Assembly: GCA_965263355.1 (NCBI GenBank) | Contig: CBDHHL010000056.1 | Span: 128,001 to 192,000 of the forward strand | Origin: Leptolyngbyaceae cyanobacterium | GTDB taxonomy: Bacteria; Cyanobacteriota; Cyanobacteriia; Phormidesmidales; Phormidesmidaceae | Direction: 5' to 3' | Length of the DNA: 64,000 bases | In this document: piece after piece, positions 2,790-48,160 of the stretch | Layout of the letters: each line of letters opens with the position of its first letter | Numbering within the stretch: position 1 is the stretch's first letter | Made by a program: the position numbers and the translations under genes | The notes under the pieces: generated by a model | Seen by the model: the letters and a program-made list of their open reading frames with translations, nothing else | What the model was told of the DNA's origin: nothing | Database searches by the model: none

Positions 2790-4094
2790 ATGAACCTCAC
2801 CCTTCATAACACCCTGACAGGCCGAAAGGAGCCATTTGTCTCTATTCATCCGGAACAAGTGGTGATGTATTGCTGTGGTGTGACGGTCTATGACCATTGC
2901 CACTTAGGGCATGCTCGTTCATACATGGGTTGGGATGTGTTGCGACGTTATTTGCAGTGGTGTGGATACACAGTGCGCTATGTGCAGAACTTTACAGATA
3001 TTGACGACAAGATTCTCAATCGTGCCAAGGTAGAAGGGGTAACGATGCAGGAGGTGAGCGATCGCTACATTGCTGCCTATTTTCAAGATATTCGCCGACT
3101 CAATATTCTCGATGCCGATGACTACCCTCGTGTGACAGAGCACATCCCTGCCATTCATCAATTGATCCAGGCACTAGAACAGCAAGGATACGCCTATGCG
3201 ATCGATGGTGATGTTTACTACAGCGTGCGGCAGTTCGAAGAGTATGGCAAGCTCTCTGGACGGAAGCTGGAGCAACTGCAGGCGGGTGCCGGGGGACGGG
3301 TTGCTCCTGATGCTCCAGGCCAAAAGAAGCGCGATCCGTTCGACTTTGCTCTATGGAAATCGGCAAAACCGGGTGAACCTGCCTGGGAGTCGCCTTGGGG
3401 AATGGGACGACCAGGGTGGCACATTGAATGCTCGGCCATGATTCGGGCGCGATTGGGCGAAACCATTGACATTCACGGTGGGGGAGGCGATCTGGTGTTT
3501 CCCCACCATGAAAACGAGATTGCTCAATCAGAAGCGGTAACTGGACAACCGCTAGCGCGTTACTGGCTGCACAATGGGATGGTGACGGTGAATGGGGAAA
3601 AAATGTCGAAATCCCTGGGCAATTTCACTACGATCCGGGACCTGCTGGATGGGGTGTGGGCAGAATATCCGCAACCGATAGACCCGATGGCGGTGCGACT
3701 GTTTGTGCTGCAGGGGCATTATCGGAAACCGTTGGATTTTACGAAGGATGCGATCTCAGCTGCGGTCAACGGTTGGCAAACGCTAAAAGCTGGACTTCTC
3801 TTTGGCAACCATCATCAAGCCGCATTGGCATGGCCAGACATCCAGTCTTTCCCACAGGAACCCAGCTCAGAAGACCCGTGGGTCAAACGGTTCCAAGCCG
3901 CCATGGACGATGATCTGAATACATCAGGTGCTCTGGCGGTGCTGTTTGAGCTGGCCAAAGGGCTGCAGCGAGAGGGGAATCGTCTGGTGCACGAAGGGCA
4001 GACTCAAGTCAGTCCGGAGCTGCTTTGGCAGCAGTGGCAAACTTTGGTGTATCTGGCTCAGGTTGTGGGGTTAGAGTTCGATATATTTACCTAA
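2790..4094 (+). CDS. cysS: Cysteine--tRNA ligase, lacking the usual C-terminal ~50 aa
   Basis: [31 protein letters not shown] motifs; ends at ...GLEFDIFT (434 aa). Confidence 0.85.
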
Positions 4095-6193: not shown

Positions 6194-6277
6194 ATCTAAC
6201 AATGCCCATACACTCGATCGAGAGGTTTTCAGTGAGCATTCAAGGTCATTTACGGTGGTTAATGGTCAACGTTAGGC
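6194..6277 (+). other. attC-like recombination site
   Basis: R'' ATCTAAC (6194-6200) ... R' GTTAGGC (6271-6277), 84 bp imperfect palindrome. Confidence 0.55.
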
Positions 6278-6370
6278 AATTCATTTTGTCTGGTTTTTCA
6301 AATACCTAAGGAAACTACTTGCCTAGCGATGTACTGATAAGGTAATAATCAAGACAGATAAGGAGGCTAC

Positions 6371-7933: not shown

Positions 7934-9051
7934 AAAGCCCTGTTCTATTTGCTGAAAAAATCATCAAGAAGATCCTTACAAGAATTCAGAGATCAGTCCC
8001 CATCCCCGAATGGCATTCATCAATTTTCCGAATATTTCTTGGGATATACATTCTTCTTTTTTCCATTTCCGAATTTGGATGGATAAATGACGTTCCTAAA
8101 AGTTTATTTAACCCTCCTCTTATTAGCTTGTCTAGATTATTTTCTGGTTTTCCGTCTGGAATTCTATTTTATCTAAACATTCTGATTGTCTTGTTTGCAG
8201 TATTCATCACATTAGGTATTCGTTCACGAGCTTCAAGTCTTACCTTTGTCGTAATTAATATATTTGGCGATTCATTCATATATAGTTTTGGCAAAATAGA
8301 TCATGGCGGAGTCATGCTGATAGCGACTCTTGTTTGCTTCTCATTTTCAAATTGGGGAACTAAGAATGCTCTCATCCCAGATAAGTATTGCCCATATCAC
8401 AAACTCTCTAGTGTGCTACTAGCCATATTATTGGCATTTGGGATGTTTACAGCAGGATTTGAAAAGCTCATATTCTGGGTAGATTTTGACTTAAGCACTA
8501 ACGGGTTTTTAAGCTGGTTCTACCCTGGATACTTTAATTTGGGTAAGCAAGAACTTTTGGCTAATTTAGTCTTCTATCTTCCTACACCATTTCTAGAGAT
8601 ACTTGATTATTCCGCTGTCATATTTGAACTAGCACCCTTTTTATGCTTGATAGCTGGTGCCCGCTTTTGGAAGTCTTGGCTCTTACTAGCTTGTGTATTT
8701 CATCTAGCGAACGCATGTCTCTTAAATATTACGTTTCTTAACCACCTTCCAATATATTGTGCTTTCTTTCTGTATCCAACGCTAGATCGAGCAAAGCTTG
8801 AGAAGACTATGCAAATGAAGAGGCTGATAAGGTTTACTTATATTTTAGCTATTTTATTAGGTGCCATGCATATTGCTCTTCGGCTTAGGGGGGATGGTGT
8901 TGCCTCTCTTTTAATATCTGCCGATGGTATCTCAAAACTTTGGTTCTCTTTAATCCTTTGGCCTGGAGCAATTATTCTAGGTTTTCTTGGCTTATTTTCT
9001 CACCACAGAAAACCTTTTAACCTCTTCAACTTGAACCATGAGAAATCATGA
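7930..9051 (+). CDS. Multi-TM membrane protein, HTTM-like
   Basis: Many hydrophobic segments, SFGKIDH, AG.EK, FELAPF, FHL motifs. Confidence 0.55.
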   Translation: MKSPVLFAEKIIKKILTRIQRSVPIPEWHSSIFRIFLGIYILLFSISEFGWINDVPKSLFNPPLISLSRLFSGFPSGILFYLNILIVLFAVFITLGIRSRASSLTFVVINIFGDSFIYSFGKIDHGGVMLIATLVCFSFSNWGTKNALIPDKYCPYHKLSSVLLAILLAFGMFTAGFEKLIFWVDFDLSTNGFLSWFYPGYFNLGKQELLANLVFYLPTPFLEILDYSAVIFELAPFLCLIAGARFWKSWLLLACVFHLANACLLNITFLNHLPIYCAFFLYPTLDRAKLEKTMQMKRLIRFTYILAILLGAMHIALRLRGDGVASLLISADGISKLWFSLILWPGAIILGFLGLFSHHRKPFNLFNLNHEKS

Positions 9052-9331
9052 ATGTTGTCTAACATAGTCCCTGAGGCGGACGAGGTCAATAGCAAAGGCT
9101 AAACTTCTTTTTCTAGTTAAGCTTGAGTCTGTATTCAGACATGCAGGATTAACCTGATACTCAGTTGTTCAGGGAGGAGATTGTTCTCTCTCAGAGAGGG
9201 CTGCTTTGCTGTATGACCGTGAATACGGGTTAGCTGTTCATCGGATATTGCTCCAAGTGATTACATCGAGTGCTCGATCTTGTTGTTGTAGTTGTAGTAG
9301 TTGTTGTTATCTGCCTTTAAAGTATTACTTG

Positions 9332-10675
9332 TTATTTTTGTGATTGTTGTTTAGGTTGTTGTTGAACGCCCAATAACTTTGCTAGTGGGGACTTTTTGCG
9401 TCTCAGTACAGCTATGTATTTTTCTTCATCATAAGGGACACCATCTTGCCAACAGCGCCAGAGAATTCTTCCCCACTTATAGGCCAAGGCACGAATCGCT
9501 TTAGGATGACTTTTACCTGATTGCTTCTGCTGTAGATAAAAGGCTTGGGACCAAGTCGAATGTCGACGCGCTTGATCGACCCATTCAACAAAGGTTTGTC
9601 TGAGGAAAATTGGACATGACCAACGCCAATGAACCCAGCACTTTTTGCCGCTTTCCTCCTTGACAGGGGCAATACCGATATAGCTCATAAAGGCCTGAGC
9701 CGACGTAAAGCGCGTGCGGTCTTCGCCAAAGGCGACTAACAGTCGTGGCGCTAGATGCGGTCCGGCTCCCGGTAAGGCCTGAAATAACTCGGCATCTGGC
9801 AATGACTCAAACAGGTTAGCAATCTGTTGGTTAAATTCAGTTAATTGTTGTAAAACAACCTTAAGCAGAGTGATTAGACTTAAAGTCAGTGTTTTAGCCG
9901 GTATCACAATGGCGTCATCCTCAGTCAGCGGTGGGCCTGCGTCTTTGATTTGCTGAATCCTACGCTGAATCGTCGTCCGTCGAACAACATGATGGCGATG
10001 GAAAAACTGAGTGATTGTTTCAGGGGTTGCTGCTTGGGCCGCTTTGACATCGTCGAACTGCTCAATAAACTCACAAAAGACCTGCGTATCTTTATCTCTA
10101 AACCAATCAAGAACTTGAGGAAAATAGGATTTGAGTGATGCGGTGATACGGTTAGTCAAACGCACCTTTTCGCCCACTAACATCCGACGCGATTCTACCC
10201 ATTGTCTGAGGGCACGATGTTCAGGGCACCCTGCCACCCAAGCCTTTAGTTTATTGCCATGCTTACGCATTAACTCCACCAGAATACGGGCATCTACGGG
10301 GTCGGATTTGGCTCGTGATGGCTGAAACGCTTTTCGATAGTTGGCCACCGTTCTGGGATTAATGGGAAACAGCACTAAATTGTCATACTGACACAGCGCA
10401 TAGAGTAGAGGCCCTCGCTGTTGTTCAAGAGCAACCGCAATTTTGCCAGGACCATACCGTTCTCGGAGTTGTGTGACCCAATCCAGAATAGCTTGAGGAT
10501 GGTTTTGAATAATACTATTTTTCCAGGTGTCTGTTGCACAGTCATATACCGCAATGTCATTTTTTCGGTCAGCCCAGTCAATGCCCACATAGGCCACATA
10601 GTCAATCGACTCGATGGCCTTAGGCATAGGTGTTTCTGAAGCTGAGTCTGTAGTTATGGTTGGGGCTATTGTCAT
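9332..10675 (-). CDS. IS110-family recombinase/transposase
   Basis: RuvC-like DEDD (GIDWAD, ALEQ, KSDPVDA) and Tnp domain PGAG..LA, GIAPV..ESG. Confidence 0.93.
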   Translation of the reverse strand: MTIAPTITTDSASETPMPKAIESIDYVAYVGIDWADRKNDIAVYDCATDTWKNSIIQNHPQAILDWVTQLRERYGPGKIAVALEQQRGPLLYALCQYDNLVLFPINPRTVANYRKAFQPSRAKSDPVDARILVELMRKHGNKLKAWVAGCPEHRALRQWVESRRMLVGEKVRLTNRITASLKSYFPQVLDWFRDKDTQVFCEFIEQFDDVKAAQAATPETITQFFHRHHVVRRTTIQRRIQQIKDAGPPLTEDDAIVIPAKTLTLSLITLLKVVLQQLTEFNQQIANLFESLPDAELFQALPGAGPHLAPRLLVAFGEDRTRFTSAQAFMSYIGIAPVKEESGKKCWVHWRWSCPIFLRQTFVEWVDQARRHSTWSQAFYLQQKQSGKSHPKAIRALAYKWGRILWRCWQDGVPYDEEKYIAVLRRKKSPLAKLLGVQQQPKQQSQK

Positions 10676-10706
10676 TGTGTTAGATTAGAAGCCAATTTGT
10701 TTAACA

Positions 10707-10989
10707 GGGGTACGTCTGCTACCTACTTGAAGAGCGAAAAGATTATGGAAGCGATTGAATCCCCTTCCCTGAGAGTTCGTTTAAGACAAGTAGGACAAAG
10801 ACCAGAGGCGAGGCGATATGTTAGTAGTCATTGACTGACGTGCGTTGGATAGTCGTCCTCTAGTCCTAGCAGACAAGCCCCATTTTTTGACTTTACGCTT
10901 TTCTTGACAGTTGGGATGAGTGAAGATGAGGAGCGATGCGATATGTTAGTAGACATGCAGGCTGTCGCTCGTTGCATAGTCGTCTCCTC
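10707..10989 (-). ncRNA. Predicted IS110 bridge RNA (two target-binding loops + one donor-binding loop)
   Basis: Hairpins 10928-10989, 10801-10864, 10722-10794; closing helix 10714-10721/10867-10874; loop segments match the reconstructed target and donor. Confidence 0.75.
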
Positions 10990-11281
10990 GGTTCGTCCCC
11001 CCATAACCCGTTGGGGCGGACGTATAAAAGGCGTCGCAAGTACTGTACAAGATATCGGTCGCCGCTCAACTTAGCCGTTAGTTGGGTATGGGTCTGGGTA
11101 TGGAGTTACGAATCGTAATGAGATTAGCTTCTGGGTTAGAGATCGTTGATTTTCATCTTTGACGCTGAGGGTGGATAACATAGCCTCTGAGGCAGATGAG
11201 GGCAATTTCACACTGCTTGACAGCTTCCTTTCCCGTGATTACATTGTAATTACATTTTCCTGTTCGCAAGTATCTAATTCT

Positions 11282-11542
11282 ATGGGCACAATTGTCAGAA
11301 CTCGGATCGTTAAAATTGGCAATTCTCAAGGCATTCGTATTCCTAAGCTCCTCTTGGAGCAAAGTGGTATTCATGAAGACGTTGAGATTGAAGTACAGGG
11401 TGATTGTCTGACTATTCGCAAAGCACAATGTTGGCGTGCCGGATGGGATGAGGCCTTTGCTGCAATGGCTGAGAATCAAGATGATGTACTTCTAGATGAC
11501 GTCAACACTACTGACTGGGATCAATCTGACTGGGAATGGTAG
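11282..11542 (+). CDS. AbrB/MazE-family antitoxin
   Basis: RTRIVKIGNSQGIRIPK; start reassigned to ATG 11282. Confidence 0.88.
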   Translation: MGTIVRTRIVKIGNSQGIRIPKLLLEQSGIHEDVEIEVQGDCLTIRKAQCWRAGWDEAFAAMAENQDDVLLDDVNTTDWDQSDWEW

Positions 11543-11859
11543 TCAAGCGTTTCGATGTTTTTCTGGTCAACCTAGACCCCACTGTTGGCAGTGAAATTCA
11601 GAAAACACGCCCCTGTGTTGTTATATCACCGGATGAGATGAACCGTTATATCGCTAAGGTTATCATTGCTCCAATGACTACGAAAGGTAAGCAATATCCC
11701 ACTCGTGTTGTCTGTCAATTTCAGGGCAAAAATGGGCAAATCGTTTTAGACCAAATCCGCACAGTAGATAAAAATAGATTGGACAAAAAGATTGGCCAAA
11801 TCAGTCAAGATGAGCAAAAAATGCTTCTTGCGACCTTAGCTGAGATGTTTGCTGAATAG
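11536..11859 (+). CDS. PemK/MazF-family toxin
   Basis: LVNLDPTVGSEIQKTRPCVVIS, DQIRTVDK. Confidence 0.92.
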   Translation: MVVKRFDVFLVNLDPTVGSEIQKTRPCVVISPDEMNRYIAKVIIAPMTTKGKQYPTRVVCQFQGKNGQIVLDQIRTVDKNRLDKKIGQISQDEQKMLLATLAEMFAE

Positions 11860-39814: not shown

Positions 39815-41515
39815 ATGGGGTCAGATTCATCATACTCATCTGCCCGTTGGGTTGCCATTATTGCTGTGGTTTTAACCCTGTTTATCGCCTTTTTCTGGCG
39901 TTTAGACAGTATCGGCCTGGTGGATGAAACGGAACCTCTATTTGCCGAAGCATCACGCCAGATGTACCTTACTGGCGACTGGATTACCCCCTATTTCAAC
40001 GGTGAAACCCGGTTTGACAAACCACCTTTGGTGTACTGGGGCATGGCCTTAGGCTTCCAACTTTTTGGCGTTGGCGAATGGGCCGTGCGGCTGCCATCGG
40101 CCCTAGCTGCGGCTGGTCTGGCTGGGTTTAGCTTTTATACTCTGGAACGATACGGCCACCCCCATGGGGCACAAGCTACACCCTTACTAGACAAACAGCC
40201 ATCAGACAAACAGCAAGCCTTTACGCTAGCAGCCTTAGTGGGCACAGTTGCCATGGTGCTTCATCCAGAAACCCTGGTCTGGGCCCGCACAGGTGTCTCA
40301 GATATGCTGCTGTCAGGCTGTATGGGAGCGGCACTGCTATGTTTCTTTTGGGGCTATGCCCAAGGGGGCAAGGCCCGCTGGTATTACGGCTTTTACACAT
40401 TTGTCGCCCTGGCTGTATTAGCCAAAGGCCCTGTGGGGGCTGTTATTCCAGGGCTGGTGGTGTTTGCCTTTGCCGCCTATCTGGGGCAGATGCGCAACCT
40501 GTTTAAGGAAATCAAGCTGCTGTGGGGCAGCCTGCTGGTACTACTGTTAACACTGCCCTGGTTTATCGCTGTAATTGTCATCCATGGCCAAACCTATATT
40601 GACAACTTTTTTGGCTACCACAACTACGAGCGGTTTACCGAAGTCGTCAATGGTCACGCCGCCCCTTGGTACTTTTACTTTGCCGTCGTCGCGGTGGGCT
40701 TTTTACCCTGGTCACCAGGGTTGCCCTTTGCCATAGTGCGGCTACGGCCCTGGTCCCTGGGTTACTGGCGACGTCAACCTCGAGAGAAACAGCTAGGATT
40801 GTTTGCCCTGATTTGGTTTCTCGCCATCTTCTGCTTTTTTACAGCGGCGGTTACCAAGCTACCAAGCTATGTGCTACCACTGATGCCAGCGGCAGCCATT
40901 ATGATTGGCCTTATGTGGGCTGGCCCCCGTCAGCGAGGCACCTGGCTTAGCGCCCTGGTGAGCATAGTGTTTTTTGCCCTGTTATCAATCGCCTCTTACC
41001 TAACGCCAAACTGGCTCGGTGGCGATCCGGTGATGCCTGATTTTCCAGAGCTAGTGCGCAATTCCCAAGCTATGTTACACGGCTCAATAGTGTGGGGACT
41101 GGCCACATTGGCAGGCTTAGTATTGTTGTTAATGCGGCGAGCGCGATGGATGTGGACCGTTAGCTTGATTGCCTTTATAGCCTTTACCCTGGTTTCAATT
41201 TTGCCCATGGCAACCATTGCTGACAGCCAACGCCAGCTGCCCCTGCGACAGCTGGCCGAGACCATCCAAACAGAACAACAGCTTGATGAACCCATCGCCA
41301 TGGTCGGATTTATGAAACCGAGTCTGGTGTTTTACACGCAGCAGCCAGTTTTGTATACCTATAACCCTGATTCAGAGAGACTACAGGCCTTAGGCCAGGC
41401 CCTAGTCGTCGGTCACCCCGATGAGATTGCCACAGCCATTGGGGTGAGCCAGTCAGGAAAGATTTTACAAGCAGCAGGCACCTATCAATTAGCGCGATTA
41501 ACCTTCACACCATAG
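39815..41515 (+). CDS. ArnT/PMT-family (GT-C) glycosyltransferase
   Basis: DETEPLFAEASRQM, FDKPPLVYW, LAKGPVG, TKLPSY. Confidence 0.88.
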   Translation: MGSDSSYSSARWVAIIAVVLTLFIAFFWRLDSIGLVDETEPLFAEASRQMYLTGDWITPYFNGETRFDKPPLVYWGMALGFQLFGVGEWAVRLPSALAAAGLAGFSFYTLERYGHPHGAQATPLLDKQPSDKQQAFTLAALVGTVAMVLHPETLVWARTGVSDMLLSGCMGAALLCFFWGYAQGGKARWYYGFYTFVALAVLAKGPVGAVIPGLVVFAFAAYLGQMRNLFKEIKLLWGSLLVLLLTLPWFIAVIVIHGQTYIDNFFGYHNYERFTEVVNGHAAPWYFYFAVVAVGFLPWSPGLPFAIVRLRPWSLGYWRRQPREKQLGLFALIWFLAIFCFFTAAVTKLPSYVLPLMPAAAIMIGLMWAGPRQRGTWLSALVSIVFFALLSIASYLTPNWLGGDPVMPDFPELVRNSQAMLHGSIVWGLATLAGLVLLLMRRARWMWTVSLIAFIAFTLVSILPMATIADSQRQLPLRQLAETIQTEQQLDEPIAMVGFMKPSLVFYTQQPVLYTYNPDSERLQALGQALVVGHPDEIATAIGVSQSGKILQAAGTYQLARLTFTP

Positions 41516-42405: not shown

Positions 42406-42458
42406 GTAGGGTGCCGTATAGTGCGTTATCTCTTGGAAGTGGTGCGTGAGTCACGCAC
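42406..42458. repeat. Fragmentary REP pair
   Basis: GTAGGGTGC ... GTGCGTTATCTCTTGGAAGTGGTGCGTGAGTCACGCAC. Confidence 0.55.
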
Positions 42459-43986: not shown

Positions 43987-45514
43987 CAGGGTAATTGCAG
44001 TTATTTAGTATAAATTGTACTTGACAGAAAGTATTAAATAGTGGGTCAGTGTGATCACCAAATGATTCTAAACCCAATGCTAATAACAAGTGTTAATATG
44101 CAGCTCAATTTAGAACCCATGCAACATGACCTCTTAACAGAATGATGTGAAGTTCTCTCAATCCAGATTCGTGTTGTGCTCAGCATTAACACACCAGAAA
44201 CACTACACCTCAGCTTCAGTGTCAGCACTAGCCATGAGTAACGACAAAAGATAATTATTATCCATGGCAGCCCGATACCGCTTTGTGTTGATACTACCTT
44301 TGCTAGAATCTCGTTTTATGAGATTGATGCACAAACGTCGAAGTAATCCTATATTCTCCGGTCCATGGTCTTTTCGAATTCGACTTTGGTCCTCTTTGAA
44401 GGTCACATCTAGAACCCAATGGAGACTATTTTCAATACTCCAATGGGACCGAATCGATTGCCCAAAAACACTGGCATCTGATTCTAAACTGCTGATATAA
44501 AAGCAGATGTTTTCTTCTTCTTTGTTCGGTAGAATTCGTCTACGACGAACCATCACAATACTCTTTAACCCTTTCCATTTCTGCACATTGGGGAGGTCTG
44601 GCACTTGCTCAATCGAGACAACCCACACCTGACGATGCTCAATGCGATCATGTCCTGCTTCAGTAGTATGCTCATAACTATAGTCAATGTCCTGCCATTC
44701 ATTGGCTCGGGCCTGTTCAAAAAAATCTTTAACACCCTGATAGAGATTGTCTTGATTCGCCTTGAGCGCCAATATATAGTCCCCTCCACCCTGAATAATT
44801 TGCTCTGCAATGGCCGTTTGCGTCCCCATCGCATCGATGGTGATGATTGTTCCTTCTAAGGACAACATTTCAAGCAGCTCAGGAATGGCCGTAATCTCAT
44901 TGGATTTGGTATCGACCCGTTGCTGAGCTAACACTAAGTGATGTTCTGATGCCCAGGCACTCACGCTATGGAGTGCTTTACCCCCCACCTTCCGATCCTT
45001 CGACCCCCGCAAGGTCTTGCCATCGATATGGATGACTTTGATCTGTAATTGGGTTGTTATTTGCTCTATCCAACCCAAGAAAAACTGATGAAACTGCTCT
45101 GGGTCGATCACTCTAAACACCCTTGAGAAAGTATCGTGCGACGGGATGCCATGGGGCAATTCCAAAAACGTCGATAACCATTCCTGTTTTGCCTCACCAT
45201 AGGTTTCGACCTCCGTCATCGTGTTGGACCCAGCTAAGGTCGCAAAGATGGCGATGGTGACGATATCAATCAGTAAATGGAGGGGGTTTCGTTTCGTACG
45301 AGGGTCATCCAGGTTCTTGATCTCATCAAGCATCGTGTGCTTGAGCGTTGGGGTGGGACTGGACTTGGATAGGGGCAACGATGGTGGACCAAACCCTTTT
45401 GACATAAAGCTAAACCCGTACTGGGATGGTTGAAGGACAAGTTTTGAAGCTAGCAAACTCCAAGCCCTATCCACCATTCAATCAGTACTAATTGTCAAGT
45501 ACAATTTATGGCTG
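43987..45514 (-). mobile_element. ISAs1-family insertion sequence with 8-bp TSD
   Basis: CCCACCCC at 43979-43986 and 45515-45522; CAG..CTG termini; 17-bp IR at 44010-44026 / 45493-45509. Confidence 0.9.
44203..45405 (-). CDS. ISAs1-family DDE transposase
   Basis: GIPSHDTF, IDGKTLRGS, KSNEITA, IDAMGTQ, HWSIENSLHWVLDVTFKED. Confidence 0.93.
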   Translation of the reverse strand: MSKGFGPPSLPLSKSSPTPTLKHTMLDEIKNLDDPRTKRNPLHLLIDIVTIAIFATLAGSNTMTEVETYGEAKQEWLSTFLELPHGIPSHDTFSRVFRVIDPEQFHQFFLGWIEQITTQLQIKVIHIDGKTLRGSKDRKVGGKALHSVSAWASEHHLVLAQQRVDTKSNEITAIPELLEMLSLEGTIITIDAMGTQTAIAEQIIQGGGDYILALKANQDNLYQGVKDFFEQARANEWQDIDYSYEHTTEAGHDRIEHRQVWVVSIEQVPDLPNVQKWKGLKSIVMVRRRRILPNKEEENICFYISSLESDASVFGQSIRSHWSIENSLHWVLDVTFKEDQSRIRKDHGPENIGLLRRLCINLIKRDSSKGSINTKRYRAAMDNNYLLSLLMASADTEAEV

Positions 45515-46698
45515 CCCACCCCGCAACAAACGAGAACTATCCACCTTCCCAGAACCAACCCAGGCCCTAAAACTTTCCGCATAGGGCCGTAACTTCCGCA
45601 GCTCACCATCAATCCAGGCTTCATCAAAAACAGCCCTATAGATCGGATTATAAACCCGTAACCGACTGCCTCGCTTCACCACCAAGCCCGACAATTGCAG
45701 CTCTCTCTCTTCAGGCTGATTATTCGCCGCAATCGCTTCCGCCTGTCGAATTTGCCGATACAGCTCCAGCAAATACCCCGCTTTCCGCTCATCATCCAGC
45801 AACCGTTGCCGAATCGTCTTTAAATGCTCTTGATGATCCTGAGTTTCCCAACTATCAATCAGCCGTGCGTTTACCAACCCATCAATCGCAACCGCTTCAC
45901 TCCCCGCTGCAATTGCCCCATCTGAGTCCACCACCAACTGACATAACCGCTGGGTCAAAAACGGCTGTCCCCCCGTCCATCGCAAAATCTCTTGCAACAC
46001 CGTCTCTGGCTGCTCTGCTTTCCCCCGTAACCCAGCCGCCAAAGGCAACGCTTCCTCACGCGAAAACCCCTTCAAATCAATACTTTTACCCACATTAAAG
46101 GGAGTCCGCTTTGCATCCCCAATCAACTCCGACGGGGCCGCCACCCCCAACAACGCAAACGTCAGTTTCTTATACGCAGAGTTCTCCGCCCGCTTGTTAT
46201 AACACCCCCGAATCAGTGCAAAAAAATCATCGGTAAACGGCAAACTGAGGGTGCTATCAATCTCATCAATAAAAACAACAATCGATTCCTCAATCCCTGA
46301 CAACAGAACCGTATCAATAAATTCCGCTAAACGCTCCACTGGCGCAATAAAGTCTCGTTCCTTTAGCCAACTGCGAAACGCTTGCCGATCCAGCAACCCA
46401 AACTGCCGATTTAACTGATTAATAATGCCGTCATACCACCGATCTGGCCGATCAACCTGACTATCCTTCGCCGAAAAATCAATAATAATTCCAGCCCAGC
46501 CTGCAGCCTGTAGCTTAGCCAGGGTTCTCACCATCAGGCTGGTCTTCCCCATCTGCCGAGAGTTCAGCACATAGCAAAACTCCCCCGCCTTCAGCGCTTC
46601 ATACAACTCCATATCACTTTCCCGCATCACATAGGAGGGCACATCCTGCGGTAACGCCCCACCCACCTTATAAAACGAGGAACTTATGGGTGATTCAC

Positions 46699-48160
46699 TC
46701 ATTCCGCCATCCTCAACCGCGAACGAAAATAAGGCCGATACAGAGGTTCATGGCGCAGCACCACCCCATTCCCCTGCAGATTTACCAACCCCATGCCATT
46801 GAGCTTAAACGCCAGCATCGACTTTAGCTCCACCGGCTGCTCAGACACAATCACCTGCTCAAATGCCTGGGCCAGCTCTGGGTGCTGCTGCAAATTCCAT
46901 AGGTGTCGCCGCAAATGTTCCCCATAAATCCCGGCATCCGTAGGTGCTTCCTTCAGCAGTTGCTCCAGGGTCAAATCCTGTTGAGCAATATGATACAGCG
47001 CCAGCCGCACCAGATAGGGATGTCCCCCCACCATGGCCATCAGGTCATCCACCTCTGCTGGGGTCCAATTCAGACCATGCTTTGCCACCAGCTCCAATAC
47101 CTGGGCCGCCGTAAACTCCGGTAGCTCCACCGCCAGCCCCACATTAAAGGGCGACACATTACTTTCTAAAACAATATAAGATTCCGTCGAATGGGCAATG
47201 GCCAGCTTCAACTTGGCCCATGTAGCATCCACCTTGGCTTTCTCATTCCAGGACCGCAGTAGGGTTAAAAACTCCTTAGAAACTGCTTCATAGGGAAACA
47301 GGCGATCCAATTCATCCAGGGCCAAAAATAAGGATGTGTCAATCTTAGGGAGGATATACTCTTCAAAGTAATCAGTGCAGTTTTCCTTGGGGCCAAATAA
47401 CTCCTCATCCCAAAACTCCGTCACCTTTCGGGGCGAGAAGCCCAACTTTTTGCTGACCAATGCACAGAGTCGTTTTAGGAAAATGCTGGAGTCGGTAAAG
47501 GTGCGTTCATCGGTCTCTAGAAAATCCAGCGTGACGATTCGATAGTTAAGTTTATCCGCCCGGTCTCGAATACGGGCCAGCAGAGACGTTTTACCCATCT
47601 GTCGCGGAGCCTTTACCCGCACTAGCCCACCGCGATTTTCAATTTCCTGCAGACAGCGGCTATCCCAGGGTTCTCGCAGGATATAAAACGCAGATTCTAG
47701 TGGCATGGTGCCCCCTGGCAGCTCTAGATCTGCCACGGGTAAAGGAGGCCGCTGGAGGGTGGACGGTTTTATTGACCGTTGGCCGTTTTCTGCTGCTGCT
47801 GCAGGCATCTGCCCAGAGCTAATCAATGCCAGAATATTGTCCACCAGCTGGGGTGTATCCCCAGGCGTTTGCCAAAATTTTTGTTGAATGGTCTGTAAAC
47901 TGCTTCTCAATTCGGGGTTAAGCGGGTCATCTAGAGGTAAGTTGAGCCGAATGGGCAAAATTATCGGCTTACCCAGCGTATTCTGCAGTTGCTTAGCCGT
48001 TTGCACCTCGCCCGCCACCATATCACTGGTCACCGACTGCTCCGACAGCAGCAGCACAAAGTAATTACATCGCTTCAGTTCCCGATGGATTCGCTGCAAG
48101 GACTACAATCTTCCGCTTAGTCATAGAGGGCTGGGACTCAGGAATAGATAGTGTAGCCAT
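46699..48160 (-). pseudogene. (CHAT)-TIR-AAA_35 protein with internal deletion/frameshift near the N-terminus
   Basis: ATG 48160 gives ..KRKIVVLAANPSGT then stop; another frame gives QRIHRELKRCNYFVLLLS (TIR half), [14 protein letters not shown]. Confidence 0.7.

Follow-up and report, generated by a model that had tools for sequence, protein, structure and literature searches.

Within the window, by which the whole 64-kb stretch of DNA analysed here is meant, an intact IS110-family element resides on the minus strand (Table 1), having the tetranucleotide TATG as core at each of its junctions. On this strand the left junction reads CCAACGGGT-TATG-GGGG with the core at 11005-11002 and the right junction reads CTCAGGGAC-TATG-TTAG with the core at 9066-9063, whereby the element starts with ..CCAACGGGT-TATG-GGGGGACG and ends with ..CTCAGGGAC-TATG-TTAGAC. 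A preliminary description of this DNA had joined the flanks at a shared TATG core, and both junctions were found to read as claimed there. The trinucleotide GAC was considered as alternative core and ruled out, as it is just some of the left flanks that end with GAC TT. The ends are also marked by two metagenomic relatives, L091 and L092, which are 98.2% identical over 1832 nt, their similarity starting and stopping at the TATG cores while their flanks are unrelated. TATG is found at the left junction of 34 of the 35 distinct relatives and at every right junction found, and the TTAG right flank is kept in most of them. The deviating left junction, that of L004, has GCAG in place of TATG; it reads ..GGTCGGGT-GCAGGGGAGACG, as though a small deletion had taken away some bases, those of the attC arm described below among them.

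Table 1. Features of the element and of the interrupted integron attC site, with positions referring to the window.
Feature	Position	Strand	Basis
Whole IS110-family element	9063..11005	-	Cores by sequence; L091/L092 identity ends at the cores; separate assembly contigs
Right part of the interrupted attC: TTAGACA, which with the core G gives the R' box GTTAGAC	9056..9062	-	Sequence; TTAG kept in most relatives
TTGACC, -35-like hexamer	9084..9089	-	Located in the right end, 17 nt before the core TATG
Recombinase gene, 447 aa	9332..10675	-	Pfam DEDD_Tnp_IS110 and Transposase_20; alignment to IS621
Canonical bridge-RNA body, closing helix 10881-10867/10721-10707 round B and D	10707..10881	-	Inverted-repeat search, MFE fold, RNAalifold
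Donor-type loop D	10720..10796	-	Guides match the right end CTCAGGGAC and the left-end start TATGGGGG
Target-type loop B	10797..10867	-	Model R1, 80.2 bits; stem covariation; left guide covaries with flanks
Conserved A-rich linker AGAAAAGCnUAAAGUmAAAAAA, between A and the closing helix	10883..10904	-	Nearly invariant columns in the left-end alignment
Target-type loop A, hairpin with internal loop, outside the closing helix	10922..10994	-	Model R1, 79.6 bits; RNAalifold; left guide covaries with flanks
Left part of the interrupted attC: R'' box AACTAAC, 5' arm, variable loop, 3' arm read by the left guides	11006..11096	-	Model R2, 63.6 bits; arms covary

In two public assemblies holding the window, the element forms its own contig of 1934 nt (9074-11007), the word depth of which is 104x and 73x as compared to 13-29x for the flank contigs, contig depth being a rough guide only to copy number. 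Several different right flanks join the element at 9057-9061 in these assemblies, which fits the existence of several copies with a common core and a few right-flank bases in common. Among the assembly contigs matched to the window neither a circle junction nor an empty-site joint was seen, and within the 64-kb window neither a second copy of the element nor another TATGTTAG site was found; copy number is low, i.e., 1-3 per genome. The sole RNA-library contig matched to the element covers 9313-9470, within the recombinase gene, with none matching the left end. The right end of the element is 265 nt in length, which is less typical for the IS110 group, and its conserved part in relatives comprises only the last ~50 nt, most of the remainder not being conserved. 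Its last 25 nt (..CGTCCGC, followed by 9 nt and TATG) resemble an attC 3' arm. Direct repeats of TTGTAGTTGTAGTAGTTGTTGTT (23 nt, three copies) overlap one another in the right end just past the recombinase stop, at 9277-9351. A 31-nt copy of right-end tip, core and flank (..CTCAGAGGC TATG TTA; 11176-11206, minus strand) was identified 170 nt upstream of the element in the mazE reading frame region, which is 84% identical to 9060-9090 and is possibly the footprint of an earlier copy. At 44203-48099 (minus strand) of the window a DDE_Tnp_1 transposase gene adjoins two AAA_35 genes, one of these with a TIR domain; this neighbourhood is unrelated to the element and may represent a defence-type pair.

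The recombinase matches the Pfam families DEDD_Tnp_IS110 (PF01548, E 4e-26) and Transposase_20 (PF02371, E 5e-16), both above the cut-offs, and its alignment to the IS621 transposase (PDB 8wt6) brought the motifs GIDxA (D33), DPVDAR (D125, D128) and ESG (S342) into register, whereby the position of E in this alignment is approximate only. Both the N-terminal DEDD RuvC-like domain and the C-terminal Tnp domain with its catalytic serine, as they are found in IS110-group recombinases, are thus present. So are the further hallmarks of this group, namely a long structured non-coding left end upstream of the gene (330 nt, with compensatory pairs), target loops whose left guides (those of A and B) covary with the flanks, and the same short core, TATG, at both junctions. 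Right guide and right flank match without covariation, as there is next to no variation in either. IS1111 and IS1111-attC elements are distinguished by a guide RNA downstream of the gene and by subterminal inverted repeats of 11-13 bp, neither of which was found here: all guide loops are located upstream of the recombinase gene, and the repeat search identified no inverted repeat of at least 12 nt pairing the two ends, a short CGTC/GACG match being discernible by eye. Rfam yielded chance-level matches only in 8500-11600, and a plasmid search returned distant IS110 genes only, e.g., of the ISEsa2 family. The assignment as an IS110-type bridge-RNA element is supported by these data.

The left end folds into three internal-loop hairpins, two of target type (A and B) and one of donor type (D), with 1 of 100 shuffles folding as well as the native 330 nt (z = -2.46). 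A covarying closing helix encloses B and D, and A, which is a full paralogue of B, is located 5' of this helix. Precisely this had been described before, i.e., an IS110 bridge-RNA-like element with two target loops and one donor loop, a helix round B and D and A outside of it, and on re-reading of the sequence all coordinates and matches hold. The closing helix was recovered as an inverted repeat (10707-10721/10867-10881, 15 nt, 80%), is part of the MFE fold and appears in the RNAalifold consensus, which was built on 32 left ends and consists of hairpin A alone, followed by the helix closing B and D (columns 161-173/351-362); here the changes are compensatory, as exemplified by pair 167/357 (GC 13, AU 11). 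In loop A the left guide UGCAACGAG is located at 10976-10968 and the right guide CUAACAUA at 10949-10942, the RNAalifold pairs being columns 33-40/86-92 and 55-58/66-69, while loop B carries its left guide UCCAACGCA at 10849-10841, the same right guide CUAACAUA at 10824-10817 and a basal stem in which pair 177/266 is GC in 10, AU in 7 and UA in 4 cases. The conserved A-rich linker between A and the closing helix is, at a guess only, an internal promoter or processing site.

The paralogy of A and B, which had been deduced from their common CTAACATA (10949-10942 in A, 10824-10817 in B), was borne out by direct repeats of 34 nt (82%) and 23 nt (83%), by an alignment over the full length of the loops and by a covariance model of the A/B unit (R1), a check that had been proposed earlier and that recovered exactly two copies in the 64-kb window (80.2 and 79.6 bits). 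The only sites in the window related to CTAACATA or its complement are loops A and B and the right junction. When 66 units were considered, the specified hairpin was found to be paired in 92.8% of cells as compared to 83.8% in shuffles (0/500) and 35-52% when slid. Moreover, A and B differ by fixed compensatory changes, with pair 13/68 being GC in 31 and AU in 30 units, pair 14/67 AU in 31 and GC in 30, and pair 34/46 UA in 32 and AU in 28; as these are double changes that keep the pair, both loops must have been kept as hairpins since the duplication.

Loop D has an exact stem (10794-10787/10729-10722, CCTACTTG/CAAGTAGG), a left guide CUCAGGGA at 10773-10766, which is identical to the last 8 nt but one of the right end, and a right guide CUUCCAUA at 10751-10744, which is complementary to TATGGGGG with two G:U pairs. 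The donor match, for which an 8/8 left match and a right pairing with two G:U had been reported together with the stem, was thus reproduced, comprising 8/8 positions in the same sense and 7-8 pairs in antisense including G:U, whereby neither guides nor ends vary. Across relatives the D guides CTCAGGGA and TTCCATA, the right end CTCAGGGAC-TATG and the left-end start TATGGGG are invariant, the sole variable donor position presenting one compensatory case (window and L001) and one mismatch (L089). The base after the D right guide (A; 10744-10741) complements the T directly preceding the core at 33 of 34 TATG junctions with 30-nt flanks, which recalls the handshake guides of IS621; the matching position of the target loops does not fit the donor.

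Relatives were gathered by scanning genome and metagenome contigs with the recombinase. In this way 48 loci with two A/B-type units and D were obtained, which after removal of duplicates represent 36 distinct elements including that of the window, and all 36 of these, having 71-91% protein identity and coming from many cyanobacterial families, keep A, B and D. More distant relatives, namely L025, L108 and L129 (52-54% aa), possess one target-type unit and D, and where A would sit a plain 5' stem-loop precedes the single target loop; they share with the element the CUAACAUA right guide, the CUCAGGGA donor guide, the order of parts and the flank type, e.g., GGTCGGTGTGCAACGAGAT-TATG in L129. Among relatives at 50% aa or below no R1 units were found, and a self-similarity scan of the left ends of these relatives gave no separation, with double-loop controls scoring 19-20/30 as compared to 17-22. 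In a tree of the 66 units 30 of 31 B units fall into one supported clade with the A units opposite, and units of one element never pair, the tree resting on few columns and leaving many forks unresolved. This fits a single old duplication, seemingly followed by no homogenisation within elements.

Which parts of the units have changed since is instructive. The right guide CTAACATA is present in 28/32 A units and 28/31 B units, and the left-guide columns are the least conserved of all (mean identity 0.73 vs 0.91-0.94 elsewhere), there being 20 distinct left guides among A units and 19 among B units. Counted by eye from the table of the 36 elements, TGCAT-type left guides occur in 24/36 A loops and 0/36 B loops, 19 B left guides begin with TGCAGC and 13 are of CAAC type, and no element has an identical left guide in A and B. 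Such a pattern bears on the idea that one target-type loop does the work, with the other being an idle preserved duplicate, e.g., a scaffold for folding or protein loading that replaced the ancestral 5' stem-loop. The plain stem-loop at A's place in single-loop relatives speaks for this idea, as does the fact that B alone occupies the canonical enclosed position and that three elements (L016, L019 and L101) carry one damaged loop each. An idle loop would, however, hardly be expected to keep the exact 8-nt right guide in both copies next to left guides that are hypervariable in both, and a guide-like pattern of this kind would not be expected to last across elements up to 29% apart in protein. 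In L016, which resides on an Altericista chromosome (locus 1131-1235 and 3542-4042), ~100 nt have been inserted into loop A, splitting it; the element is located ~575 nt from an intI fragment (residues 148-314, one TAG), the other half of intI lying ~770 kb away, and the same genome also holds an empty TATGTTAG attC (L171), which is an 8/9 match to the guide of the broken loop A.

The sequence into which the element is inserted had been guessed to be an attC-like repeat, and this guess was substantiated. Integron attC sites have boxes of the consensus RYYYAAC and GTTRRRY, with the crossover point lying between G and TT of the latter. At most loci the left flanks have ~90 nt in common, which begin with a ..CTAAC box, and in the target alignment the TAAC at the left end varies hardly or not at all (e.g., GCCTAAC, GTCTAAC, AACTAAC). 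The right flank begins with TTAGRC and together with the core G reads GTTAGAC or GTTAGGC; when all right flanks are considered, G/TTAGAC, G/TTAGGC or G/TTAGCC follow, the latter departing from RRR at one place. Between the boxes the target arms form 12 pairs, 10 of which show compensatory changes, with columns 86, 89 and 93 being unpaired, as is typical for the attC palindrome; the single empty attC-type copy in the window folds no better than shuffles. A covariance model of the target (R2) identified at least 83, 34, 27, 41 and 10 copies in five host genomes, which are arranged as same-strand arrays. In two of these genomes (G003 and G004) an intI gene scores above the TIGR02249 cut-off and R2 copies lie directly beside it, as on contig C6 of G004, where intI (40561-41499) is followed by R2 matches at 42440, 43465, 45592, 46334 and 46941; further R2 arrays are located on contig C8 of G001 (2666004-2696811) and on contig C50 of G004. 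A covarying hairpin in arrays adjoining intI having thus been found, the target is a real integron attC site. An IS605/TnpB element end or the tail of one gene family were considered as targets and ruled out; the genes upstream of the insertion loci vary (SbcC-like, AraC-like, none) with no common neighbour.

The window itself holds two attC-type copies 4.7 kb apart, and no integrase was found among the 38 ORFs scanned. The second copy (GCCTAAC ... GTTAGAT; 6198-6290, minus strand, R2 45.8 bits) is uninterrupted and lacks TATG as core; neither of the resident element's guides matches it, as would fit an empty site. In a cassette-like setting the two copies are separated by a sulfotransferase gene and two unknown genes, and a mazE/mazF (PemK) toxin-antitoxin pair (11159-11859, plus strand) directly adjoins the interrupted attC. 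A typical empty attC reads ..T/GTTAG and hence is without the TAT of the core; one empty attC with TATGTTAG was identified, namely L171 in G002. Insertion thus seems to be confined to a rare attC variant, maybe the reason for the low copy number of the element. If TAT were brought by the element, each insertion would be expected to retain one core of target type after conservative exchange at a mismatched core, and no such core was seen.

In order to follow the relation between guides and insertion sites, 34 of the 36 elements were used; the 16 nt on the left side of the core served as the flank against which each left guide was scored, and these flanks were reshuffled 20,000 times among elements; L004, whose left junction is without TATG, and L006, of which 1 nt of flank only is available, were dropped. 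As both elements and sites are related, the shuffle counts given here are not true probabilities and overstate significance. The A guide scored 5.65 against its own flank as compared to 4.60 when shuffled (0/20,000), the B guide 4.85 as compared to 4.27 (23/20,000) and the better of the two 6.56 as compared to 5.23 (0/20,000). For each loop the signal is retained where the other is silent: at the 13 loci with A at background (a score of 4 or below) B scored 6.00 vs 4.24 shuffled (0/20,000), and at the 20 loci with B at background A scored 6.50 vs 4.56 (0/20,000). The collection of insertion sites, which had been proposed as a means to sort them into loop-A and loop-B classes, yielded A as the better-matching loop at 20 loci and B at 12, with ties at 2; across relatives A, i.e., the loop outside the closing helix, is hence matched more often than B. 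Scores of at least 7 were obtained for 12/34 cognate A guides (non-cognate 11.8%) and 4/34 cognate B guides (non-cognate 7.1%), and the case for B rests on fewer loci than that for A. Among the loci scoring at least 6 the guide's first T is located 11 or 12 nt from the core in 24/28, and 9-10 nt from it in the other 4.

The most telling case is provided by L091 and L092, which possess identical guides. The flank of L091 (TGCATTGGG; site TGCATTGGGGT-TATG) matches A at 9/9 positions and that of L092 (TGCAGCGC; site TGCAGCGCGATT-TATG) matches B at 8/8, so that these near-identical elements split between an A-type and a B-type site, in line with the two-guide targeting of site variants that had been inferred previously. 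Further clear cases are L017, which matches A, and L019, which matches B, both at 9/9. Other flanks match neither of their own loops well (score of 5 or below), namely those of L002, L093, L099, L032 and L107, and also for the window's own insertion neither A nor B provides a clear guide: the left segments GCAACGAG and CCAACGCA each match CCAACGGG at 6/8 positions, as had been stated. The left guide, moreover, pairs at a distance of 2-3 nt from the core instead of being flush with it.

The scarcity of strong B cases (4/34 scoring at least 7) may be held in favour of an idle loop. Yet both left guides track the flanks, and L091 and L092 match different loops with the same set of guides; in combination with the retained right guides and the depth of conservation this renders an idle second loop unlikely. 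Alternatively, the guide-flank matches might have nothing to do with targeting and might reflect related elements sitting in related attC families of related hosts, i.e., co-inheritance, or chance look-alikes. A TGCA motif is indeed common to guides and flanks, non-cognate pairs score at least 7 in 7-12% of cases, and loci are not independent, as seen for L007 and L104, whose similarity runs on into the flanks. The shuffles, however, keep composition and none attained the score found for A or for the better of the two, the register clusters at 11-12 nt, neighbouring genes vary among loci, and L091 and L092, being 98% identical, lie in unrelated flanks that are matched by different loops. We therefore regard co-inheritance or chance as highly improbable. 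A regulatory role of the second target loop was considered as well, be it as decoy titrating the recombinase or as partner binding the same attC with one loop per arm. This would agree with the covarying arms of attC, due to which a left guide that is same-sense to the 3' arm is at the same time a complement of the top-strand 5' arm, and with the right guide being common to both loops. But at most loci only one left guide matches, the other being at a background score of 4 that equals the shared TGCA; joint binding of one site by both loops is thus not supported, and a decoy would need no left guide that tracks real sites. Such a regulatory loop consequently appears very unlikely.

Both loops are thus apparently in use, as far as can be judged from sequence comparison. 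The extra target loop, which had been proposed on grounds of this one element, is kept in 36/36 close relatives with compensatory stems and with both left guides covarying with the sites. Taking anatomy, conservation, stem covariation, guide-flank covariation for both loops and target identity together, the element is probably an active-looking IS110-group insertion sequence targeting integron attC, whose left-end RNA carries one donor loop D and two paralogous target loops A and B. By analogy with IS621 the following course of events may be suggested. In its circular form the element would rebuild a promoter across its junction, as is known for IS110 elements (PMC11208160). The candidate consists of the TTGACC of the right end, a spacer of 17 nt and TATG.., whereby TTGAC is kept in 16/18 right ends examined, TTGACC-17-TATGTT is read in the integrated copy and the candidate junction -10 box is TATGGG, without the usual final T. 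The whole left end would then be transcribed, probably from this circle-junction promoter, and would fold, although the transcription start might exclude A from the transcript of B and D. Loop D is predicted to pair with the joined ends of the element, CUCAGGGA with the right end and UUCCAUA with the TATGGGG of the left end. The fixed right guide CUAACAUA, common to A and B, would read TATG and TTAG, i.e., the R' box side of attC, and each loop's own 9-nt left guide would read the variable attC 3' arm ~11 nt upstream of the core. One recombinase dimer on D would hold the circle junction and another on a target loop would hold attC, with either A or B supplying the target half, which would result in two target specificities per element.

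For IS621 it was reported that separate target- and donor-loop RNAs support recombination in vitro, and the two loops of one synaptic complex are thought to come from different RNA molecules (PMC11208158). Since target- and donor-loop RNAs can be separate, a second target hairpin should function without other change, and outer loop A may act as a free-standing target module in trans. We consider it reasonably likely that the element represents a natural multiplexed bridge RNA, having two independently programmable target loops and one donor loop, which was kept while recombinases diverged by up to ~29% and which provides two attC addresses per element.

In comparison with known systems, the element resembles the IS621/IS110-group bridge-RNA elements (Durrant et al. 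2024, PMC11208160; Hiraizumi et al. 2024, PMC11208158) in its DEDD and Tnp recombinase and in the guide RNA of its left end, which lies upstream of the gene. Common to both are internal-loop hairpins, with a left guide that is same-sense to the top strand and a right guide that is the antisense of core and right arm (for IS621 see PMC11208160), the order of a target loop followed by a donor loop in one RNA, and a -35 box in the right end. Unlike IS621, which has one target loop and the core CT, the element possesses two target loops, the extra one replacing the 5' stem-loop, and a 4-nt core; its left guides stop 1-3 nt short of the core, whereas in IS621 the left guide runs up to it, and its target is a structured attC site. 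In the latter respect it is like the IS1111-attC group (ISKpn4, ISPst6; Tetu & Holmes 2008, Post & Hall 2009, cited in PMC11187229), which comprises DEDD-transposase elements that occupy a fixed place at one attC end and whose insertion is likewise guided by RNA from a non-coding region (PMC11187229). In these, however, the seekRNA is located downstream of the gene, subterminal inverted repeats of 11-13 bp are present and the strand-match order is reversed, while here the guides are upstream, follow the IS110-group order and include two target loops (PMC11187229). The element thus is not an IS1111-attC element, though the target class is common to both.

A duplicated target loop in a bridge RNA was not found described in the full-text literature, of which survey figures or supplements could already show one: the main text of PMC11208160 makes no mention of tandem or third loops, and section 2.4 of 10.64898/2026.10.21.760802 covers 86 models with some structures deviating from IS621, a duplicated target loop not being mentioned in that section. 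Bridge recombinases are in development as programmable genome-writing tools and were described with one target and one donor loop. A naturally occurring, conserved RNA in which two target loops are apparently in use suggests that target modules are stackable on one RNA and provides a ready-made scaffold on which this can be tested. It further points to a route of RNA diversification in which a loop is duplicated and its left guide alone subsequently drifts. At the same time an IS110-group lineage is added to the known attC-targeting elements, and the combination of a fixed guide for the R' box with two exchangeable guides for the variable arm may explain how such an element copes with sites that are conserved in shape and variable in sequence. 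If this holds true, bridge RNAs would evolve new specificities by loop duplication, and a single RNA would serve several targets.
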